Shown here: positions 2,315-8,940 of the stretch, piece by piece
Position numbering within the stretch: the first letter of the stretch is position 1
Layout of the letters: every line of letters starts with the position of its first letter
Notes under the pieces: generated by a model
Databases searched by the model: none
What the model was told of the DNA's origin: nothing
The model's input: only the letters and a program-made list of their open reading frames with translations
Position numbers and translations under genes: made by a program
IMG/VR virus record: IMGVR_UViG_3300029721_000031
Reading direction: 5' to 3' (one strand)
Length of the DNA stretch: 10,183 bases
Origin: a virus
Taxonomy: Duplodnaviria > Heunggongvirae > Uroviricota > Caudoviricetes

Positions 2315-3013
2315 TTACTGCGAAAGTTTGTTAATGGAAAGGAAGCTGCCAAAGTTGCCGACATTATTGCGAAACTTACAGCCACTCAGGCATTTGCTGC
2401 ATTTATCCTTCGTGATATCGGACGTCGGCTGGTCATATTCATCCGCGACCGCCGGACCGCTATAACCGCACTCATCGCCGCGATAGGTCCAGGTGCAGGT
2501 GTTGGCCAGCATGATACGTCCCGGAAAAACAGCGCCATCCGTTTCAGTCGGCGTGGACAGTACAAAAGAGGCACTGACCGCGCTCAGTTCGCTGCACTGC
2601 TCGATGCGCCAGCGGCTGATCACCTCCTGCTCCGGATCGGCTTCGCTGTTTCCGTTGACGAAGTTCACCGCATCCAGAAAGCGGGCGTAAACCTTACGCC
2701 GGACCACCGTTCCGCCGACCAGACTCTGCAGATCTTCCGCCATCCCGGTGATCATGCCGTGCAGGTTAGAGACCGCCAGTGTCGGACGGGCAGCACTGCC
2801 CTTGCCGTTCATCTCAAATCCACTCCCCTGAATGGGATAGGCCTGATACTGCCGACTCTGCCAGGTGACAGACTCACCTTTTTCGTTCTGCTCATTACAG
2901 AAAAAGTAGCGATCCCCGCCTACCTCGGTCAGGTCGATTTCCCAGAGCACCACGCTGGCCGACTGCTCCGCACGAATGCATTCATTCAGCGTTTCCTGTT
3001 GTATGTCCTGCAT
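2315..3013 (-). CDS. L: Minor tail protein L (232 aa)
   Basis: Translation MQDIQQETLNECIRAEQSASVVLWEIDLTEVGG...GNFGSFLSINKLSQ has the same length as lambda gpL and closely matches my recollection of it. The start codon overlaps the M stop (TGATG). Confidence 0.9.
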   Translation of the reverse strand: MQDIQQETLNECIRAEQSASVVLWEIDLTEVGGDRYFFCNEQNEKGESVTWQSRQYQAYPIQGSGFEMNGKGSAARPTLAVSNLHGMITGMAEDLQSLVGGTVVRRKVYARFLDAVNFVNGNSEADPEQEVISRWRIEQCSELSAVSASFVLSTPTETDGAVFPGRIMLANTCTWTYRGDECGYSGPAVADEYDQPTSDITKDKCSKCLSGCKFRNNVGNFGSFLSINKLSQ

Positions 3014-3312
3014 CAGATCACCACTTCGTCAAACTGACACGAAAAATCGGTATAGGTGATATGTTCTGTCGCTGACCACGTTCGACACACCACTCTGATT
3101 TTTCTGTTAATACCCGGCGGGCGCCAAAAAAAAGATTTATAGCCTTCATGCCGGGCTAAAAATTTTTCAAATGAATCACGTTCATTCGCCTCAACTTTGA
3201 AATCACAGGTGAAAACGCGCAGAGAATGATTAAGTCCATTTGGACTTCGTTGCTCATAACCATCGCCAAATCTTACAGTTTTTATCGATGGTTTATTTTC
3301 TGTTTTCATTCC
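3013..3312 (-). CDS. M: Minor tail protein M (about 99 aa from ATG at 3312; the ORF track extends to a GTG at 3351)
   Basis: MKTENKPSIKTVRFGDGYEQRSPNGLN... resembles lambda gpM (conserved VRFGDGY, KSF-W-PP segments). The ATG at 3312 is preceded by GAGGATGGA (Shine-Dalgarno). The alternative GTG at 3351 overlaps the tape measure stop and has no obvious RBS. Confidence 0.8.
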   Translation of the reverse strand, partial: GMKTENKPSIKTVRFGDGYEQRSPNGLNHSLRVFTCDFKVEANERDSFEKFLARHEGYKSFFWRPPGINRKIRVVCRTWSATEHITYTDFSCQFDEVVI

Positions 3313-3343
3313 ATCCTCTGGTAACCAGTGAAATTCTTCCGTA

Positions 3344-6300
3344 TTAGCCACTTAACATTCCCCCATCACGTCGCATATTTAACAGATTGCCCTGCACCCG
3401 CTGATCAACCATCCCCATAAGTGCTTTTATTGCCTGAGGGCCAATCTCTCCATTCTGGCCGTCATTTTGAATAGTGATTTGGTATACAGGGGCATAGGTA
3501 ATATCTCCGCCTCCATTACCACTTTTACTATTAACAGCTCTGACACCAAGAGAACCATCGGAAGTTCGTGTTAATGGCATAATGGCTTCCGGACCAGCCT
3601 CACCAAAAACACCAGCCCCTCTTGCAAAAGCAAAAAATTGCGGGGAATCATAAATACCGTTCGAATACGTGTTCAATGACGGAGACTCATAAACACCGCC
3701 CTTTGCATTCGGAATAAATTTACTAATAGCACTCCCGATAGTTCCTAAAATCCCCCCAGAAGAACTGTTACTAATGCTGTCGAAAATCCCAGTAATTGAA
3801 GCCTTTAATGCTATTCGACTAAGATCCGAAATCACGGAAGTAGCGAAAGAACGAAAATTTGCTTTGCCTGTCGTGACAAAATCACCCAGCGCATCGGTCA
3901 TTCCATCAAACATCTGAGTCGTGGTTGATTTTATCTGCTCACTGATATCCTTAGTGTCATCCAGCCAGTTATTGAATCCCTGGGAGGCACCACTAACCCA
4001 GTCTCCTGCCTGAATATCGAGCTGCTCGTTTTTCTGTCTGACAATTTCTTTTTCTCGTTCCAGAGCATCATTCAGAGCCTGCATTTTCTCCTGAAAAACA
4101 TGATTTGACATCCCACGGGATTTATCTGCATAGTCACGTTCAAGTTGCAGACGCTGATTGTTATATTCACGTTCAATCCGCAGTAATTCCTGCTGGCGTT
4201 GCTGATTTTTATCGCCAACCCCATAACCAGCAATCTGAATATCATACCCCTGTTGACGATTATCAATCGAAGCCTGCAATGAATCACGCCATGCAGCTAT
4301 TTCGGCTGATTCCTTGATTAGCCTGTTATTTTTTTCAATCGCAACATTTTTCTCCATCAACGCGGTTATTTCTTCCCGGTGTAAGAGAAGCGATTTCTGA
4401 TCCTTGGTTAATTTCGATGACGGTCGTGACTCCAGGTCGGCAATCTGCTGACGCCACTTAACCAGTTCCTGTTCAGAGGAACTTAATTTAACGGTTAATT
4501 CAGTTTGTGAACTTAGTAACGCATTCTGTTGATTCAGATGATCAATCATTCGTTGGGCAGCATCATCCGAATAACCTTTCGCCTTTGGTTGCTTTGGATC
4601 TTTATAACGCTCATTTATTTGAGCGATAAGATTATTATATTCTTCCTTTGAATACTGACTCTTTAGTTTTTCCAGTTTTGCAAGTTCACTAGCTCTCTGC
4701 TGCTCCCGGGTCTGATATTGTTTTGAAAAGGCATCTGCTCTCTGTCTGAGTTCAATTCCTTCCTGTTGTCGCTTGTTGTAATCGTTTATTGATGAATTTA
4801 GTACGTCCTGAGCAATTTTTTCTGCTTGAAGTACGCCCAATTGCTGCTTTAATCGTGCCAGCCTTTTATTTTGAGCTCCGCCATCTCCAATGCCACCTAA
4901 CCCGAAAACTCCGGGTCGGGTATTTTTTTCTATTTCATCAATTTGACGGAGAACATCTGAGATTTTTTGATCAAGGGAGGCCTCACGGCCAATATCCAGC
5001 ATGGAATCCCATGCCCATTTTGCGGAGTCTGCGACAGCTTTCCATGCAGTCTCAAGATAACCAAGATTTTCTTTAATCTGGTTGGTGCGCTGGATCATTG
5101 AGGATGAGTATGCTTCTGTCGCAATGCGGGCGGCCTCCTGCTGGTTCCCTTCATCCTGTAGCGCCTTAATCTGGTTATAAGTCGCAATTGTCAGAAAATG
5201 GTACTGATCATTAAGTTTTGATATGGCACTGACAGGATCCTTTGCAATTTCATTGAAGTCATTAACCAGTTGTTCGGTTGATATTCCTGTTACTTCGCTC
5301 GTTTTTACTATCGCTGTCGTCACTTGCTCCAGCGAACTGCTCGCTACCTTTCCCGAACGCACAAGCTGGTTTAATACTGCCGCCGCAGCGCCAGTTGTCG
5401 AATCAGCCGCATTCCCGGCACGTTGAACTATATCGGCCAATTGCCCGCTGGTTGTCCCCAACTGATTTCCGGTAAGAATAAGAGACTTATTAAATTCGTC
5501 CTGCTCCTGAGAGCCTTTATAGTAAGCCAGCCCTAAGACGCCAACGGCTGCTGCGGCCAGGGTAAAAGGATTAATTAATCCCAGCACATAAGAACCAACA
5601 CCTTTGATCGCCGGGCCAATCCCACCGAACATATCTTTTAGCTGGCCGCCCTGCTGCATTAACACCATAAAAGGCGACTGACCAGTGGACAACCCAACAA
5701 CAATATCCGTCATTTGTGCAGGCAACATGCGCATAGCAAAAGCCGTTTGTTTTGCCGACATTCCGGTTTTGCTTAATTGAGATTGAGTAACCTCAAGCTC
5801 ACTCCGCATAGCACGAAGTTTTCCAGAAAGTTCCTCATACATTTCAGGAGAGAGCATCCCCTTAGCTTTTGCTTCATTGAGCTGTTTCTGTTGTTCTACC
5901 AGACGATTAAAAGCAGTTCCGACAGGGTCAAGTTGAGCAATCAGACGTTGCAAAGCAGCAACCTGTTCATCATGCGCTTTTGCTGCTTCTCGCTCTGCCT
6001 GAGCCTCTCCGGTAAGCTCTCGCCGTGTTTCCTGTATTTTTCGGCTATAATTCTCAAACTGAGAACCATTTATTTTCCCGGATGCAAACGCAGCATTAAG
6101 TTCATCCTGCTGTTGTTCAAGATTTCTTAGCGCCGCAGCCAGAGGGTCGATCTTGTCCAGCATTCTTTGAAAGGCCTGAGTCTGCGCTTCCTGCTGGGCG
6201 GCAGCAAGTTTTCCGGCCTTCTCGGCTTCTCTCTGCGCTTGCGCAACCCCGCTCAATTCCTCTGTGGTTTCATTAAGTTTACGGACAAGAAATTCATATT

Positions 6301-6577
6301 CTTCTTTATCAATAAGCCCTTTATCGAAAAATTTCTTTAATTCAGAATAGCGTCGACCGACAGTATCAATTGCGGCACCAACTGGATCAATAGCTGCTTT
6401 TAATTTTGCGAGCGCGTTCTTCTCATCTTCTGTTGCCTTAGTCACTTTCCCTGCGCTATTTGCAGCAGTTTCCCCGGCCTGCGTCATTTTGACTAATGAG
6501 GAGGTCAGATTGTCAGCATTATTTTTTGCTCCAGTGCTATCAATAATTATTGCGAGACGCGAGGTTTGCTCTGCCAT
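3344..6577 (-). CDS. H: Tail tape measure protein (1077 aa), lambda H-like core with an N-terminal repeat extension
   Basis: Long coiled-coil-rich ORF. Segments [59 protein letters not shown], and the C-terminal [38 protein letters not shown] resemble lambda gpH as I recall it. It sits between G-T and M. Start ATG at 6577 with GGAG 9 nt upstream. Confidence 0.92.
5777..6391 (-). repeat. Three tandem in-frame repeats (~73-80 aa each) in the tape measure N-terminus
   Basis: Protein repeats begin IDPVGAAI (aa 63), IDPLAAAL (aa 143) and LDPVGTAF (aa 216). Each is followed by similar helical segments, e.g. [16 protein letters not shown] vs [16 protein letters not shown]. The corresponding DNA motifs (actggatcaatagctgc, agggtcgatcttgtcc, agggtcaagttgagc) are visible on the plus strand. 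Confidence 0.6.
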
Positions 6578-6600
6578 TTATTAAAACTCCAGACAACAAA

Positions 6601-6620
6601 AAGCCCACCGAAGTGGGTTT
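6601..6620 (-). terminator. Terminator-like hairpin (5-bp GC stem, UUCG tetraloop, U5 tract) 24 nt upstream of the tape measure start codon
   Basis: Minus-strand RNA reads AAACCCAC UUCG GUGGG CUUUUUGUUGU. It lies within a 163-nt non-coding spacer (6578..6740) between the T stop and the TMP start. Confidence 0.4.
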
Positions 6621-6740
6621 CAGGCGACATAATAGTAGATATAGCGATTACGAGGCCACGCAATGCTTTTCTCCAGGAGCATCATCGATTTAATTAAAGA
6701 CACCATCACATCTCTGTAACAGAGTGTACGTAATTAACAA

Positions 6741-7061
6741 CTACACACACTGCTCCTGAAAATACTGGTCATCCAGTGCAAAGATCACTGCTTCAAACTC
6801 ATCGCGCTCAATCAATACCGGATGAGTGGCTAAATATTCATTTATCTCTGTCAGAGATAAAGGCAAAGGCACCCCGGTCATTCCAGCATAACGTCGGGCA
6901 CGGGATATTACCGAATAGGCGTACAACAATTCCTTAAGCACCGGGTCTATTTCTGGTTCCGGTATCGGTGGCAACCTGAGTTTTTCTCGCTTCCATCTTG
7001 CCTTTTCCCCCCTTTCTCCCCCGAACTCCGATAACCACCGCTGGGCGGCTATGGCTTTTTT
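6741..7061 (-). CDS. T: T extension of the G-T fusion chaperone, reached by programmed -1 frameshift from G (no ATG of its own)
   Basis: The -1 frame relative to G is open from 7085 to the TAG at 6743..6741 and has no ATG start (the ORF track begins it at a TTG, 6974). A -1 slip at A_AAA_AAG would give ...DTIKK-AIAAQRWLSEFGGERGEKARWKREKLRLPPIPEPEIDPV...QEQCV, a G-T product of about 255 aa. Confidence 0.7.
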   Translation of the reverse strand, partial: KKAIAAQRWLSEFGGERGEKARWKREKLRLPPIPEPEIDPVLKELLYAYSVISRARRYAGMTGVPLPLSLTEINEYLATHPVLIERDEFEAVIFALDDQYFQEQCV

Positions 7062-7510
7062 ATCGTATCCTGCTTCTGCTGCTCTTTACCCTGGGCGATG
7101 CTGGCTGCTTCTGCAAGGATCTGCCAGTACAACTCTGGATTCTGCTTAAGCAGCGCGATCCCTCGTTCTGGCGTATATTCCAGTGCAACCTCAGCACCAT
7201 TAACCAGTTCACCAACCCCTTTCCAGTCTTTCAGCAGATAACGAGCAGCATTATCAATGAGTAAATCATCAACAGAATCTACCTCGGAAACCTTTGAAAT
7301 ATCAAACTCCTTCGTTCCGACGTGCAAACTGGCATCCATTTTCTCAATGTGACGACGGATTAATGCATTACGGGAGCGATACTGATCGTTATCGCTGCTT
7401 GCCACCAACAGTTTTAACCCGTCTATAGGTTTTAAGTCCTTCATTGGCGTAAACCAGCGTTCTCCACCGATGATAATTTTCTGATTAAGAATAAACATCC
7501 ATAACCTCAT
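7049..7510 (-). CDS. G: Tail assembly chaperone G (153 aa from ATG at 7510; alternative start ATG at 7498 gives MFILNQ...)
   Basis: Small acidic ORF immediately downstream of the major tail gene and upstream of the tape measure, i.e. the conserved G position. It ends ...QDTIKKP with a slippery heptamer spanning its last codons. Confidence 0.75.
   Translation of the reverse strand: MRLWMFILNQKIIIGGERWFTPMKDLKPIDGLKLLVASSDNDQYRSRNALIRRHIEKMDASLHVGTKEFDISKVSEVDSVDDLLIDNAARYLLKDWKGVGELVNGAEVALEYTPERGIALLKQNPELYWQILAEAASIAQGKEQQKQDTIKKP
7055..7061 (-). promoter_or_regulatory. Putative -1 ribosomal frameshift slippery heptamer A_AAA_AAG
   Basis: Minus-strand sequence gat acg ata aaa aag cca tag: the heptamer A AAA AAG occupies the last two Lys codons of G, one codon before the G stop. 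The same heptamer type is used by E. coli dnaX. Confidence 0.65.
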
Positions 7511-7558: not shown

Positions 7559-8521
7559 TCAACTAATCGCATCAGCACTGGCTTTTGCGATCACGGCAGT
7601 CGGGGAGCATTTTTTTCTGGTTATCGTAGGTGCTTCATCTGCTGCGGTAATGCTCAATTGAACCTGGATAATGTCAGTATTACCCCCATCAGGCCATTCA
7701 CCTGACACCTGAACCTTCGGGAAACTGAAAGTGTATGCCCCCTCTCCATTCGAAAGCGTGAAGCTGAACGGAACTGTTTCTCCAGTCAGTGTTTTACTCC
7801 AGATTTCCCACGCGGCTTTAGACCATGAAAGCGTCACCGTACCGGACGGTGTAAAAGTAGTCGGAATATTTGCTCCTGCATAAGGCGAGCCAGTCCCGAT
7901 ACAACGCTGTGTCTGGAGTTTGTTATCGAACTGAATATCAAAACTGTCGATACAAAAACCGTTACCTCCGGCAACACCATTCAGGCTTACTGCTGAAACC
8001 GCCTTAAACGAATAGCGTAACTTTCCTGCACTATCCACAGGTTCGCCTTTGATAAAATTCGTATCATCGGCCTTTGATTCCCAGCCCAGCCCGGCAAAGG
8101 TTACGGTCGCTGTAATATCGCCGTCGTTAGGGATCTGCATTTTCCATGAGCCAACCTGCGCTCCTCTGACGACAGAGGCAATTCCGACATCGGACGCATA
8201 GGTCGCCAGAGAAAATGTTATTCGCTCATTCCCCATTGTCAGAGAATCGCCTGACCATTCCGCGCCGAAACAGGATGCAAGAAAATCATCATGTTGACCC
8301 CAGCGAAATTTGGTACCAACATCACCGCCGACATCCACAGTGCCAGGCGTCGCCCCCTGAGCCATCCGGGAGCCACCAATCTCATTATTTTCGCCTTTAT
8401 TCTGGGTGGGTTTTACTCCCCAGCTTGTGCGTTTTAATAAACTCCAGTCACCACTTGCTGGCGTAGTGCCTGCAACTGTCTCCCGGATAAATGCCGAGAT
8501 AACCTTTGCACCTGAACTCAC
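7559..8521 (-). CDS. V: Major tail (tube) protein, V-like (320 aa)
   Basis: Position immediately upstream of G/G-T. Gly/Thr/Ser-rich beta-type composition typical of tail tube proteins. GTG start at 8521 preceded by TAGGAGG with a 5-nt spacer. The family assignment is by synteny and composition, not a verified motif. Confidence 0.75.
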   Translation of the reverse strand: MSSGAKVISAFIRETVAGTTPASGDWSLLKRTSWGVKPTQNKGENNEIGGSRMAQGATPGTVDVGGDVGTKFRWGQHDDFLASCFGAEWSGDSLTMGNERITFSLATYASDVGIASVVRGAQVGSWKMQIPNDGDITATVTFAGLGWESKADDTNFIKGEPVDSAGKLRYSFKAVSAVSLNGVAGGNGFCIDSFDIQFDNKLQTQRCIGTGSPYAGANIPTTFTPSGTVTLSWSKAAWEIWSKTLTGETVPFSFTLSNGEGAYTFSFPKVQVSGEWPDGGNTDIIQVQLSITAADEAPTITRKKCSPTAVIAKASADAIS

Positions 8522-8547: not shown

Positions 8548-8940
8548 CTAGAGCGCGCGATATGGAATTTGAAGATTAAGCTGGAACCAGCCATTCTTTT
8601 CGCCGACGGCTATTGAGGAAACAGCCTGGTAACTGAGACGATCGTCATCCTGAAACTCAAACAGTTCCCGCAATTTATCGGCTGTCTCAGTAATGAGTTT
8701 TGAACCAGAACCTGCGGGGACAAATAACTGAATAATGATTATCCCCGTGCGATAAACAACCGGCCCCGCGCCAATTTCATTAACTCCAGCTTGCCCGGGA
8801 ATATTACTTAACCGCGCCCAGATTAACTTACCGGAAGGATCGAACGTTGGCCCGTTCGGATACAATACGTCTTTTCCATCAATAATCGTCTGTGCCGTCA
8901 TTCTGGAAATAACCGTATTTCTGATTTCAGTAAACTTCAT
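8548..8940 (-). CDS. Tail terminator / tail completion protein (gpU-like role), 130 aa
   Basis: Size and position (directly upstream of the major tail gene) match the lambda U / siphovirus tail terminator slot. Start overlaps the upstream stop by 4 nt (ATGA). No specific motif verified. Confidence 0.55.
   Translation of the reverse strand: MKFTEIRNTVISRMTAQTIIDGKDVLYPNGPTFDPSGKLIWARLSNIPGQAGVNEIGAGPVVYRTGIIIIQLFVPAGSGSKLITETADKLRELFEFQDDDRLSYQAVSSIAVGEKNGWFQLNLQIPYRAL

Follow-up and report, generated by a model that had tools for sequence, protein, structure and literature searches.

We identified an intact tape measure protein (TMP) in the tail module of a Rac-type lambdoid Escherichia coli prophage, in which a conserved leader is followed by three ancient helical modules that probably serve as extra ruler length at the N-terminal, head-proximal end of the protein. 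The gene lies on the minus strand of the window, by which we mean the whole 10,183-nt stretch of viral DNA analysed here (IMG/VR record IMGVR_UViG_3300029721_000031). Judged by its sequence, the open reading frame (ORF) is the tail tape measure gene of a lambda-family tail.

Results

Several sources agree on the identity of the 1077-aa ORF, which the preliminary description had also called a TMP. Pfam scans matched TMP_2 (PF06791; 270.5 bits against a cut-off of 30.2, E 1.3e-80), TMP_4 (PF24622; 86.2 against 27, E 1.7e-24) and Tape_meas_lam_C (PF09718; 91.4 against 23, E 3.9e-26). The NCBIfam model TIGR01541 scored 217.9 bits against a cut-off of 104.75, phrog_24 matched in PHROG with E = 0, and the matching PDB chains were lambda gpH (8iyk_H, E 1.9e-71) and T1 gp38 (9l9p_B, E 3.1e-56). 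A 100% nucleotide match to 3344..6577 carries the annotation "phage tail tape measure protein" and is identical to the WP_000840624.1 region of E. coli TUM14771 (NZ_CP128875, 519860-523093), where the locus is likewise intact. The gene order agrees as well: the TMP gene follows the tube gene and a chaperone pair with a frameshift and precedes M-L-K-I-J, as in a lambda-type tail module, and the PGAP annotation of the identical locus lists L, a K-like C40 peptidase, I and J downstream (lambda order H-M-L-K-I-J). The -1 frame at 6741..7061 is a candidate analogue of lambda T that would give a GT-type fusion. In lambda, gene T overlaps H, whereas in the Rac-type locus a gap of 163 nt, in which a terminator-like hairpin lies, precedes the TMP gene; in T1, a terminator is annotated at the corresponding position, just upstream of the T1 TMP gene.

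Table 1. Features of the Rac-type tail module, given in window coordinates.
Feature	Position	Strand	Evidence
Tail terminator protein, caps tube at TMP N-terminal end (putative role)	8548..8940	-	PF13554 E 3.6e-8; PGAP "phage tail terminator-like protein"
Tail tube protein, 320 aa, measured by the ruler (putative role)	7559..8521	-	PF18906 Phage_tube_2 E 1.9e-32; PGAP "phage tail tube protein"
Tail assembly chaperone YdaY, lambda G analogue, upstream of TMP	7049..7510	-	phrog_313 E 3e-46; PGAP "protein YdaY"
Slippery heptamer A_AAA_AAG (7061..7055), then -1 frame open for 104 codons	6741..7061	-	Sequence, translation, phrog_1189, weak Phage_TAC_18
Terminator-like hairpin CCCAC-TTCG-GTGGG and T-run, 26 nt upstream of TMP start codon	6604..6617	-	Terminator scan
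Tape measure protein CDS, 1077 aa	3344..6577	-	ORF list and translation; Pfam, TIGR01541, 100% nt match
Conserved N-terminal leader, 62 aa, outside repeats	6392..6577	-	Dissimilar to units; residues invariant in relatives
Repeat unit R1, aa 63-142 (80 aa); weak SHOCT-like core aa 79-101	6152..6391	-	Pairwise alignment, AF2
Repeat unit R2, aa 143-215 (73 aa)	5933..6151	-	Pairwise alignment, AF2
Repeat unit R3, aa 216-~281 (66 aa)	5735..5932	-	Pairwise alignment, AF2
TMP_2 domain, aa 267-471, spans MRMLPAQ...QQGGQ and hydrophobic stretch	5165..5779	-	PF06791; lambda gpH alignment starts here
Degenerate single copy of unit core motif, mid-protein, aa 627-687	4517..4699	-	Iterated unit HMM
TMP_4 domain, aa 671-748	4334..4567	-	PF24622
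Tape_meas_lam_C domain, aa 858-932	3782..4006	-	PF09718
Minor tail protein M homologue, downstream of TMP	3013..3351	-	PF05939 E 1.2e-31

The three tandem N-terminal repeats that the preliminary description had placed at 5777..6391 are significant, and their coordinates are exact, since codons 63 and 267 map to nucleotides 6391 and 5777 (residues 63-267). Their [IL]DP anchors fall at aa 63, 143 and 216, with MRMLPAQ at aa 282, and the Pfam TMP_2 match already starts within the final ~15 residues of R3. Smith-Waterman scores were 125 for R1/R2, 85 for R2/R3 and 74 for R1/R3, against means of 26-31 (sd ~5) in composition-preserving shuffles (n=1000); the corresponding z values are 17.0, 12.7 and 9.0, and 0 of 1000 shuffles scored as high as observed. 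Pairwise alignment found no similarity between the 62-aa leader and the units. When the whole protein was compared with itself by BLASTP in sliding 80-aa windows, off-diagonal matches were confined to aa 47-267, at offsets of ~73-80 and 153 and with E-values from 3e-8 to 2e-13 (composition-based statistics), whereas a one-piece BLASTP of the protein against itself returned no off-diagonal HSPs. The units share 31-41% amino acid identity; [IL]DP, a loop glycine and several further columns are invariant and their spacing is kept. At the DNA level, TRF detected no tandem array over the repeat region, a seed-based search gave just 13-27-nt matches at 62-93% identity, and the codon-aligned units are 43-50% identical with a longest common exact run of 9 nt. 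In the self-comparison that the preliminary description had outlined, the protein shows the repeats, and the DNA of 5777..6391 has no detectable ones.

Two independent AF2 runs reproduced one helix-loop-helix per unit: helix 65-85, loop 86-90 and helix 91-143 in R1; helix 145-165, loop 166-170 and helix 171-216 in R2; and helix 218-238, loop 239-243 and helix 244-271 in R3. The pLDDT of the unit cores was 70-81, while its mean was low (49 for the full protein, 58 for the N-terminal 300 aa), and secondary structure alone was used; the models are monomers, and the state of the protein inside the tube is beyond their reach. In each predicted module, a 5-residue G-x-[IL] loop would join a helix of 21 residues to a long one of 28-53, with a break at [IL]DP. 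Foldseek found no PDB structure at E<=1e-3, the hits being generic helical hairpins alone, and the unit profile found just chance coiled-coil matches among PDB sequences (E>=0.08).

Within aa 1-266, no family reached its cut-off in a Pfam scan at E<=1; TMP_N (PF24164) was absent from the matches, TMP_3 was sub-threshold (18.5 against 41), and no tape-measure repeat family was returned. The core of the unit, K-G-x-[IL]-x-x-x-[YF]-x5-K-[LI], resembles the SHOCT/DUF1707 motif, but the SHOCT (PF09851) scores of the Rac-type TMP, 16.7 bits for the full protein and 22.3 for the N-terminal fragment, do not reach the gathering cut-off of 27, and the unit is three times the length of SHOCT. One unit of the four-unit relative P0020 is the sole one to pass DUF1707 (PF08044; 29.4 against 27.6 bits). 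The matches of the unit profile other than TMP_2 proteins are SHOCT/DUF1707-repeat proteins, including TMPs of the PhageMin_Tail type. The mid-protein copy at aa 627-687 was marginal in pairwise tests (z 2.7).

Lambda gpH (853 aa, NC_001416) aligns from query residue 270 and lambda residue 57 to both C-termini (28% identity, E 2e-80). The Rac-type TMP is longer by 224 residues, and because the alignment begins at query residue 270, about 213 of these precede the conserved MRMLPAQ segment, where the preliminary description had located the additional length; as it had also stated, the three repeats make up that length. The two proteins have the same set of TMP_2, TMP_4 and Tape_meas_lam_C domains, are collinear from aa 270 and share a gene neighbourhood, and lambda gpH has a weak mid-protein copy of the unit core motif at aa 412-461. 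The lambda segment EPVG...AMRMLPAQ is of the same length as R3. Unlike the Rac-type TMP, lambda gpH is without an N-terminal unit, has its TMP_2 from aa 56 onward, and is 224 aa shorter. The unit HMM found no N-terminal copy on lambda gpH, and alignment of the N-terminal 56 lambda residues with the leader and each unit gave nothing significant (best R2, z 2.8); that lambda aa 3-75 might be a single very diverged unit is unproven. T1 gp38 (PDB 9l9p chain B) is also a TMP_2-family TMP with a leader, one unit (aa 73-146) and then MRMLPAQ; it differs in having one clear unit, with a weak unit match of 13.6 bits, instead of three, and T1, which is virulent, belongs to a different phage family. Both gpH and gp38 are end-to-end homologues of the Rac-type TMP and come from solved tails, with 31 discs over 132.7 nm for the 853 aa of lambda (PMC12617516) and ~34 rings with a 42 Å rise for the 957 aa of T1 (PMC11945409). 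The gain from lambda to T1, 3 rings per 104 aa, is below simple proportionality, which counts against ruler scaling.

The gene is present in ~1,070 of 5,426 complete E. coli genomes. It is also carried by ten phage records (vB_EcoS) from a genome survey of clinical isolates; in a literature search for micrographs of phages with the gene, the sole paper naming these records was that micrograph-free survey, and a search on the Rac prophage tape measure returned nothing relevant. The K-12 Rac remnant ynaA, with ydaY upstream, is 98.9% identical in nucleotides over the first 878 nt, which include the leader and the three units. In K-12, ynaA is a pseudogene with just the first 311 codons left and the remaining tail module deleted, whereas the gene in the window is intact; from this match, the Rac-type TMP gene is the intact form of ynaA.

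Comparison of homologous prophages, which the preliminary description had suggested, revealed that unit number does vary. We found one unit in Citrobacter relatives (924-967 aa), two in some Klebsiella relatives, three in the Rac-type TMP and in further close relatives (1046-1170 aa) and four in Enterobacter-type relatives (1192-1240 aa). The homologue search needed the full-length query, as the N-terminal 300 aa alone gave mostly gene fragments. The unit profile matched 136 cluster representatives (50% identity) at E<=1e-3, and those bearing TMP_2 have 1-5 units upstream of it. Among 153 TMP_2-containing proteins, which were chosen for having units and are phylogenetically related, TMP length increases by 52 aa per unit (r 0.54, p 9e-13; slopes of 52-55 aa per unit in all), and the remainder of the protein does not offset the gain (slope -7, p 0.21). 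Units begin at aa 63 in all close relatives, and residues M1, E3, Q4, S6-I10, D13 and S14 of the leader are invariant in 34 relatives across genera. We reject the possibility that the extension is a separate gene in relatives: one uninterrupted ORF spans it, the opening residues of that ORF do not vary across genera, and the split genes of some records break near aa 833, away from the extension.

The units are, by sequence comparison, ancient and diverged. Across genera they are positionally orthologous (R1~U1 76-86%, R2~U3 62-79% and R3~U4 49-60% identity), and in one-unit relatives the unit itself is just 35-39% identical to the Rac-type TMP, compared with 68-92% for the leader and 80-93% for TMP_2. 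In 1071 of 1071 complete E. coli genomes with the leader, the repeat region is present as well (1063 at >=80% coverage), and all 39 full-length rows in a spread sample of 40 span exactly 878 nt; coverage counts and the spread sample together contained no whole-unit change in number among the gene-bearing E. coli genomes. Among five alleles with natural in-frame indels, four have the indel outside the repeats. The fifth, E. coli allele P0076 (on 4 contigs), has lost 25 aa of R3 in frame, which is not a whole unit, and the deletion is flanked by the 9-nt direct repeat TGCTATGCG.

Discussion

It is textbook knowledge that TMPs can have internal repeats and that tails are proportional to TMP length. 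The N-terminal repeats are an ordinary feature and reflect an ordinary phage way of setting tail length; no concept is altered. [quoted passage not shown] If assembly proceeds as in lambda, the tube would grow upward from the tip complex as tube protein polymerises around a TMP coated with chaperone, and the terminator would cap the tube once it reached the TMP end. The modules would then add ruler length at the head-proximal, N-terminal end, and unit number (0-5) may be one way in which this TMP family sets different tail lengths. With ~213 additional helical residues there would be ~6-8 more tube rings than in lambda, and since the three modules are absent from the lambda ruler the tail would be about a fifth longer. 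Calibrated on lambda (853 aa, 31 rings) and T1 (957 aa, ~34 rings), a tail of 37-39 tube rings (~160-168 nm) is plausible for the Rac-type virion, against 31 rings and 133 nm in lambda.

Tandem repeats are present in about half of catalogued TMPs (PMC13585406), and short periodic ones have been described by Belcaid et al., 2011 (PMC3271669) and Mahony et al., 2016 (PMC5099701). Like the Rac-type units, the repeats in the TMPs of Gram-positive phages (TP901-1, p2) and mycobacteriophages are tandem, vary in number and add ruler length (PMC3271669, PMC5099701); those units are 11 or 18 aa long and central, whereas the Rac-type units are N-terminal, 73-80 aa long and far more diverged from one another. 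In TP901-1, TMP deletions and duplications alter tail length linearly, and an N-terminal duplication resulted in a ~30% longer tail (PMC5099701).

Two readings of what the units are can be set aside on the sequence comparisons. A, E, Q and K are abundant in the region, which gives many sub-threshold matches to unrelated coiled-coil Pfam families, as would be expected if the repeats were a chance resemblance of low-complexity coiled-coil segments. There is next to no chance that this is so, and we rule it out: composition-preserving shuffles never match the observed scores (z 9-17), BLASTP E-values are as low as 2e-13 and no higher than 3e-8 with composition-based statistics, the [IL]DP, loop glycine and several other columns are invariant at kept spacing, and the same units are retained across genera. 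The preliminary description had regarded the repeats as hotspots of in-frame expansion and contraction that would change tail length between isolates. Genera do differ in unit number, and the 25-aa P0076 deletion at TGCTATGCG also speaks for an active array that expands and contracts by slippage or unequal recombination. Against this stand the absence of a TRF array, units 43-50% identical in nucleotides with no exact run longer than 9 bases, 1071 E. coli genomes with leader and three-unit region, sampled full-length rows that are all 878 nt, the position of four in five in-frame indels outside the repeats, and the positional orthology of units across genera. An active array with tail-length polymorphism between isolates is accordingly very improbable and close to refuted, and neither the hotspot proposal nor unit gain or loss among E. 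coli carriers is upheld. Unit number may instead shift over evolutionary time, through old duplications and N-terminal cassette exchange between conserved flanks and not ongoing slippage.

The remaining alternatives concern function. The units could be compact, folded-back SHOCT-like hairpins that form a head-proximal oligomerisation or capping module, for example organising the TMP bundle or meeting the terminator or the DNA end, and that add little or no tail length. The AF2 models are helix-loop-helix with hairpin cores as their confident parts, the K-G-x-[IL]-x-x-x-[YF] core has sub-threshold SHOCT scores (16.7-22.3 bits against 27), one unit of a four-unit relative exceeds the DUF1707 cut-off (29.4 against 27.6), and the profile matches outside TMP_2 are SHOCT/DUF1707-repeat proteins. 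We nevertheless consider this reading rather unlikely, because TMP length grows with unit number without compensation elsewhere, the single unit of T1 and a protein 104 residues longer than that of lambda go with ~3 more rings (PMC11945409, PMC12617516), the N-terminal duplication in TP901-1 lengthened the tail in proportion (PMC5099701), and SHOCT membership misses the curated cut-off in the Rac-type TMP. Less likely again is that the units are mainly docking sites for YdaY, the tail assembly chaperone, and for the frameshift product of its gene, with unit number setting chaperone stoichiometry and length a by-product. Directly upstream of the TMP gene there is indeed a chaperone gene with a -1 frameshift of the G/GT type, and the TP901-1 study, citing work on p2, speculates that TMP repeats and the chaperone pair via periodic aromatic residues (PMC5099701). 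However, lambda gpH depends on G/GT without having an N-terminal unit, alanine replacement of a TP901-1 repeat had no effect (PMC5099701), and chaperone docking is compatible with a ruler role, not exclusive of it. The ruler reading is the one we favour; hairpins that remained folded back inside the tube lumen would bring the gain per unit below 0.15 nm per residue.

Conclusion

We found no description of the ~75-aa unit in literature searches that included TMP repeats and SHOCT motifs in TMPs, and no Pfam model covers it. A broader reading, which we offer as a tentative possibility, is that the unit is a discrete, unnamed "ruler cassette" of TMP_2-type TMPs, present in 0-5 copies between leader and TMP_2 and swapped between prophages via the conserved flanks; it would set tail length in quantised steps of ~2.6-2.9 rings per unit, and its SHOCT-like core could perhaps have its own role in TMP bundling or chaperone docking.

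Here we established that ynaA, a pseudogene in K-12, is what remains there of the Rac-type TMP gene. The predicted 37-39 rings of the Rac-type virion tail are a concrete, testable figure, and lambda (0 units), T1 (1), Citrobacter (1), Rac-type (3) and Enterobacter (4) TMPs offer a natural homologous series in which N-terminal ruler length can be set against the number of rings.

The tape measure gene and its tail module

Read on its minus strand, the window is a lambdoid prophage's tail module; the table lists its features. Its tape measure protein (TMP) matches NCBIfam TIGR01541 (217.9 bits against a cut-off of 104.75) and PHROG tape-measure families as well as Pfam domains, and several E. 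coli chromosomes carry a 100% identical gene with the annotation "phage tail tape measure protein". Of 5426 complete E. coli genomes, 1096 match the whole gene, which belongs to a cluster of 4455 members; thousands of sequences already bear the TMP annotation. At the identical locus of TUM14771, genes for a terminator-like protein, the tube protein, YdaY (the tail assembly chaperone, analogous to lambda G) and a small ORF precede the TMP, which is followed by M-like, L, C40 peptidase (K-like), assembly (I-like) and J genes.

Features of the tail module and of the tape measure protein
Feature	Window position (strand)	Residues	Details
TMP ORF	3344..6577 (-)	1077 aa	
R1		63-142	starts with [IL]DP
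R2		143-215	starts with [IL]DP
R3		216 to ~281	starts with [IL]DP
TMP_2		267-471	Pfam, 270.5 bits, far over cut-off
TMP_4		671-748	Pfam, far over cut-off
Tape_meas_lam_C		858-932	Pfam, far over cut-off
Non-coding gap, T-like ORF to TMP start	6578..6740 (-)		163 nt
Terminator-like hairpin	6617..6604 (-)		CCCAC-TTCG-GTGGG and T-run, 26 nt before TMP ATG
YdaY chaperone ORF	7049..7510 (-)		3' end ATA AAA AAG CCA TAG
Slippery heptamer A_AAA_AAG	7061..7055 (-)		then -1 frame open 104 codons
Tail tube protein	7559..8521 (-)	320 aa	Phage_tube_2 at aa 4-293

The first 878 nt of the TMP gene share 98.9% nucleotide identity with E. coli K-12 ynaA, a Rac prophage pseudogene stump of 311 codons (3001..3933 of the K-12 derivative locus L002) that corresponds to the first 311 codons of the TMP gene, comprising a leader of 62 aa and all three repeat units (R1-R3). 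With ydaY lying upstream there too, the window accordingly holds an intact Rac-type tail module. Directly after ynaA, L002 contains Lom-family fragments and an IS5-like element.

The open -1 frame that follows the YdaY heptamer extends into the ORF at 6741..6974 (-), and the locus (6741..7510) is a lambda G/GT-type programmed -1 frameshift, whose two parts PGAP annotates as "protein YdaY" plus a distinct hypothetical protein. Whereas T overlaps H in lambda, the T-like ORF and the TMP are set apart by a gap here; in phage T1, a rho-independent terminator is annotated in the same place ahead of the TMP (5509..5528 of L005). Within the gap there is also a possible ORF of 28 codons, with its ATG at 6706..6704. 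Outside the window, 5' of the tail genes, this prophage has a capsid gene (L001 1..259) annotated as P22-type major capsid; a P22-type head with a lambda-type tail is a head-tail mosaic. In one phage record the tube protein is labelled as having a BIG2 (Ig-like) domain; the tube is therefore probably decorated with an Ig-like domain, as in lambda gpV.

Three old repeat units at the N-terminus

The preliminary description placed three tandem repeats at 5777..6391, which corresponds exactly to codons 267..63, and sliding-window self-BLASTP over the whole protein found internal similarity solely in this region (E 3e-8 to 2e-13). Local alignments of the unit pairs scored 125, 85 and 74, whereas shuffles averaged 26-31 (sd ~5; z = 17, 12.7 and 9.0), and none of 1000 shuffles reached the observed values. 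The leader shows no relation to the units. R1, R2 and R3 share 31-41% protein identity and, when codon-aligned, 43-50% nucleotide identity with a longest common exact run of 9 nt, and TRF detected no DNA tandem repeat in the unit region. The units are old and lack a DNA-level tandem repeat.

In both AlphaFold2 runs, one on the full-length protein (34 sequences) and one on aa 1-300 (19 sequences), each unit was predicted as a helix of 21 residues, a loop of 5 at a conserved G-x-[IL] and a helix of 28-53, with a break at [IL]DP; pLDDT was 70-81 in the hairpin cores and ~50 or lower elsewhere. The unit core is SHOCT-like, yet under the Pfam cut-off. No curated Pfam model reached threshold within aa 1-266, a region over which PHROG tape-measure families do extend, and searches of the unit by Foldseek and against PDB sequences returned nothing specific. 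The unit profile also matches proteins with many tandem SHOCT/DUF1707-like motifs (P0205, P0243, P0214, P0211, P0215 and P0225), some with up to 11 matched stretches, and these matches include very long PhageMin_Tail-type tape measures of 1543-1786 aa. SHOCT-like helical hairpins may recur as a building block in tape measures of unrelated families.

Lambda gpH (853 aa, NC_001416) is collinear with the window TMP from query 270/lambda 57 through both ends, which places 213 of the 224 additional residues at the N-terminus, as had been proposed. It lacks an N-terminal unit and has the core motif solely as a weak copy (aa 412-461), whose counterpart here is aa 627-687; in phage T1 gp38, one unit is recognisable (aa 73-146). 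The degenerate mid-protein copy at aa 627-687 (window 4517..4699 (-)), of marginal significance in pairwise tests, occupies an equivalent position in many relatives and may be ancestral to the N-terminal units.

Unit number among relatives

A unit HMM built from R1-R3 and iterated on homologues of the TMP found a single unit in relatives of the Citrobacter type (924-967 aa), three in the window TMP and relatives of 1046-1170 aa, and four in relatives of 1192-1240 aa, with units starting at aa 63 in all three groups. When 1.84 billion cluster representatives were searched exhaustively with the unit profile, 136 proteins matched (E<=1e-3), and those bearing TMP_2 had one to five units, two-unit forms included, immediately N-terminal to it. 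Each further unit went with an extra 52 aa of protein length (r 0.54, p 9e-13; n=153 TMP_2-bearing proteins of 850-1300 aa), without compensation downstream of the TMP_2 start (slope -7, p 0.21). The units are positional orthologues across genera: in four-unit relatives, U1 matches R1 (76-86%), U3 matches R2 (62-79%) and U4 matches R3 (49-60%), while the extra U2 is nearly equidistant from R1 and R2 (39-48%). One-unit relatives share 68-92% identity with the window TMP over the leader and 80-93% over TMP_2, against just 35-39% within the unit. Such divergence between conserved flanks points to exchange of an N-terminal cassette rather than recent deletion.

The suggestion that the repeats are a hotspot of expansion and contraction is unsupported among E. 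coli isolates. The leader alone (distant mode) and the 878-nt leader plus units each matched 1071 genomes, with the longer query covered to at least 80% in 1063; in a 40-row sample across the whole ranking, 39 rows were full length at exactly 878 nt and one was a 51% truncation. In-frame length differences among close alleles fall at aa 256-280, 468-498, after 552, 551-560 and 645-859, and solely the first is in the repeats. This allele (P0076, 1052 aa, four contigs) lacks 25 residues (window ~5738..5812 (-)) between two copies of the 9-nt TGCTATGCG (...AMR...AMR...), which suggests a microhomology-mediated in-frame deletion; its ruler would be shorter by about one tube ring. Nor is the extension a separate gene: the first TMP residues are invariant across 34 relatives, and records with two TMP features break near aa 833. 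Five deposited "phage" records have this break (L004, ON470595, 1501..4734, and four similar), with 99.5% nucleotide identity to the window in the L004 TMP region; it probably reflects gene disruption in those prophages or sequencing error.

Implications for tail length

Repeat units of 11 aa are known in TMPs (PMC3271669), units of 11/18 aa occur in that of TP901-1 (PMC5099701), and, of 45,500 catalogued TMPs, about half have tandem repeats (PMC13585406). Tandem repeats that vary in number and add to TMP length are well described; the 73-80-aa unit and its distribution in 0-5 copies N-terminal to TMP_2 appear undescribed, and the finding is of modest interest.

Siphophage tails polymerise from the tip upward around the chaperone-coated TMP and end at its N-terminal end. 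Katsura and Hendrix reportedly found in lambda that tail length changes linearly with TMP deletions and duplications. The same holds in TP901-1, N-terminal duplication included (PMC5099701). The tails of two phages with homologous TMPs have been solved: that of lambda (853 aa) has 31 gpV discs over 132.7 nm (PMC12617516) and that of T1 (957 aa) ~34 rings at a rise of 42 A (PMC11945409), giving 27.5-28.1 aa per ring, or 34.7 incrementally. For 1077 aa, these figures predict a tail of 37-39 rings, about 160-168 nm, in which one unit would account for ~2.6-2.9 rings. Since lambda gpH* has been reported as a trans-envelope conduit (PMC12617516), additional N-terminal modules might alter the structure of that conduit as well.
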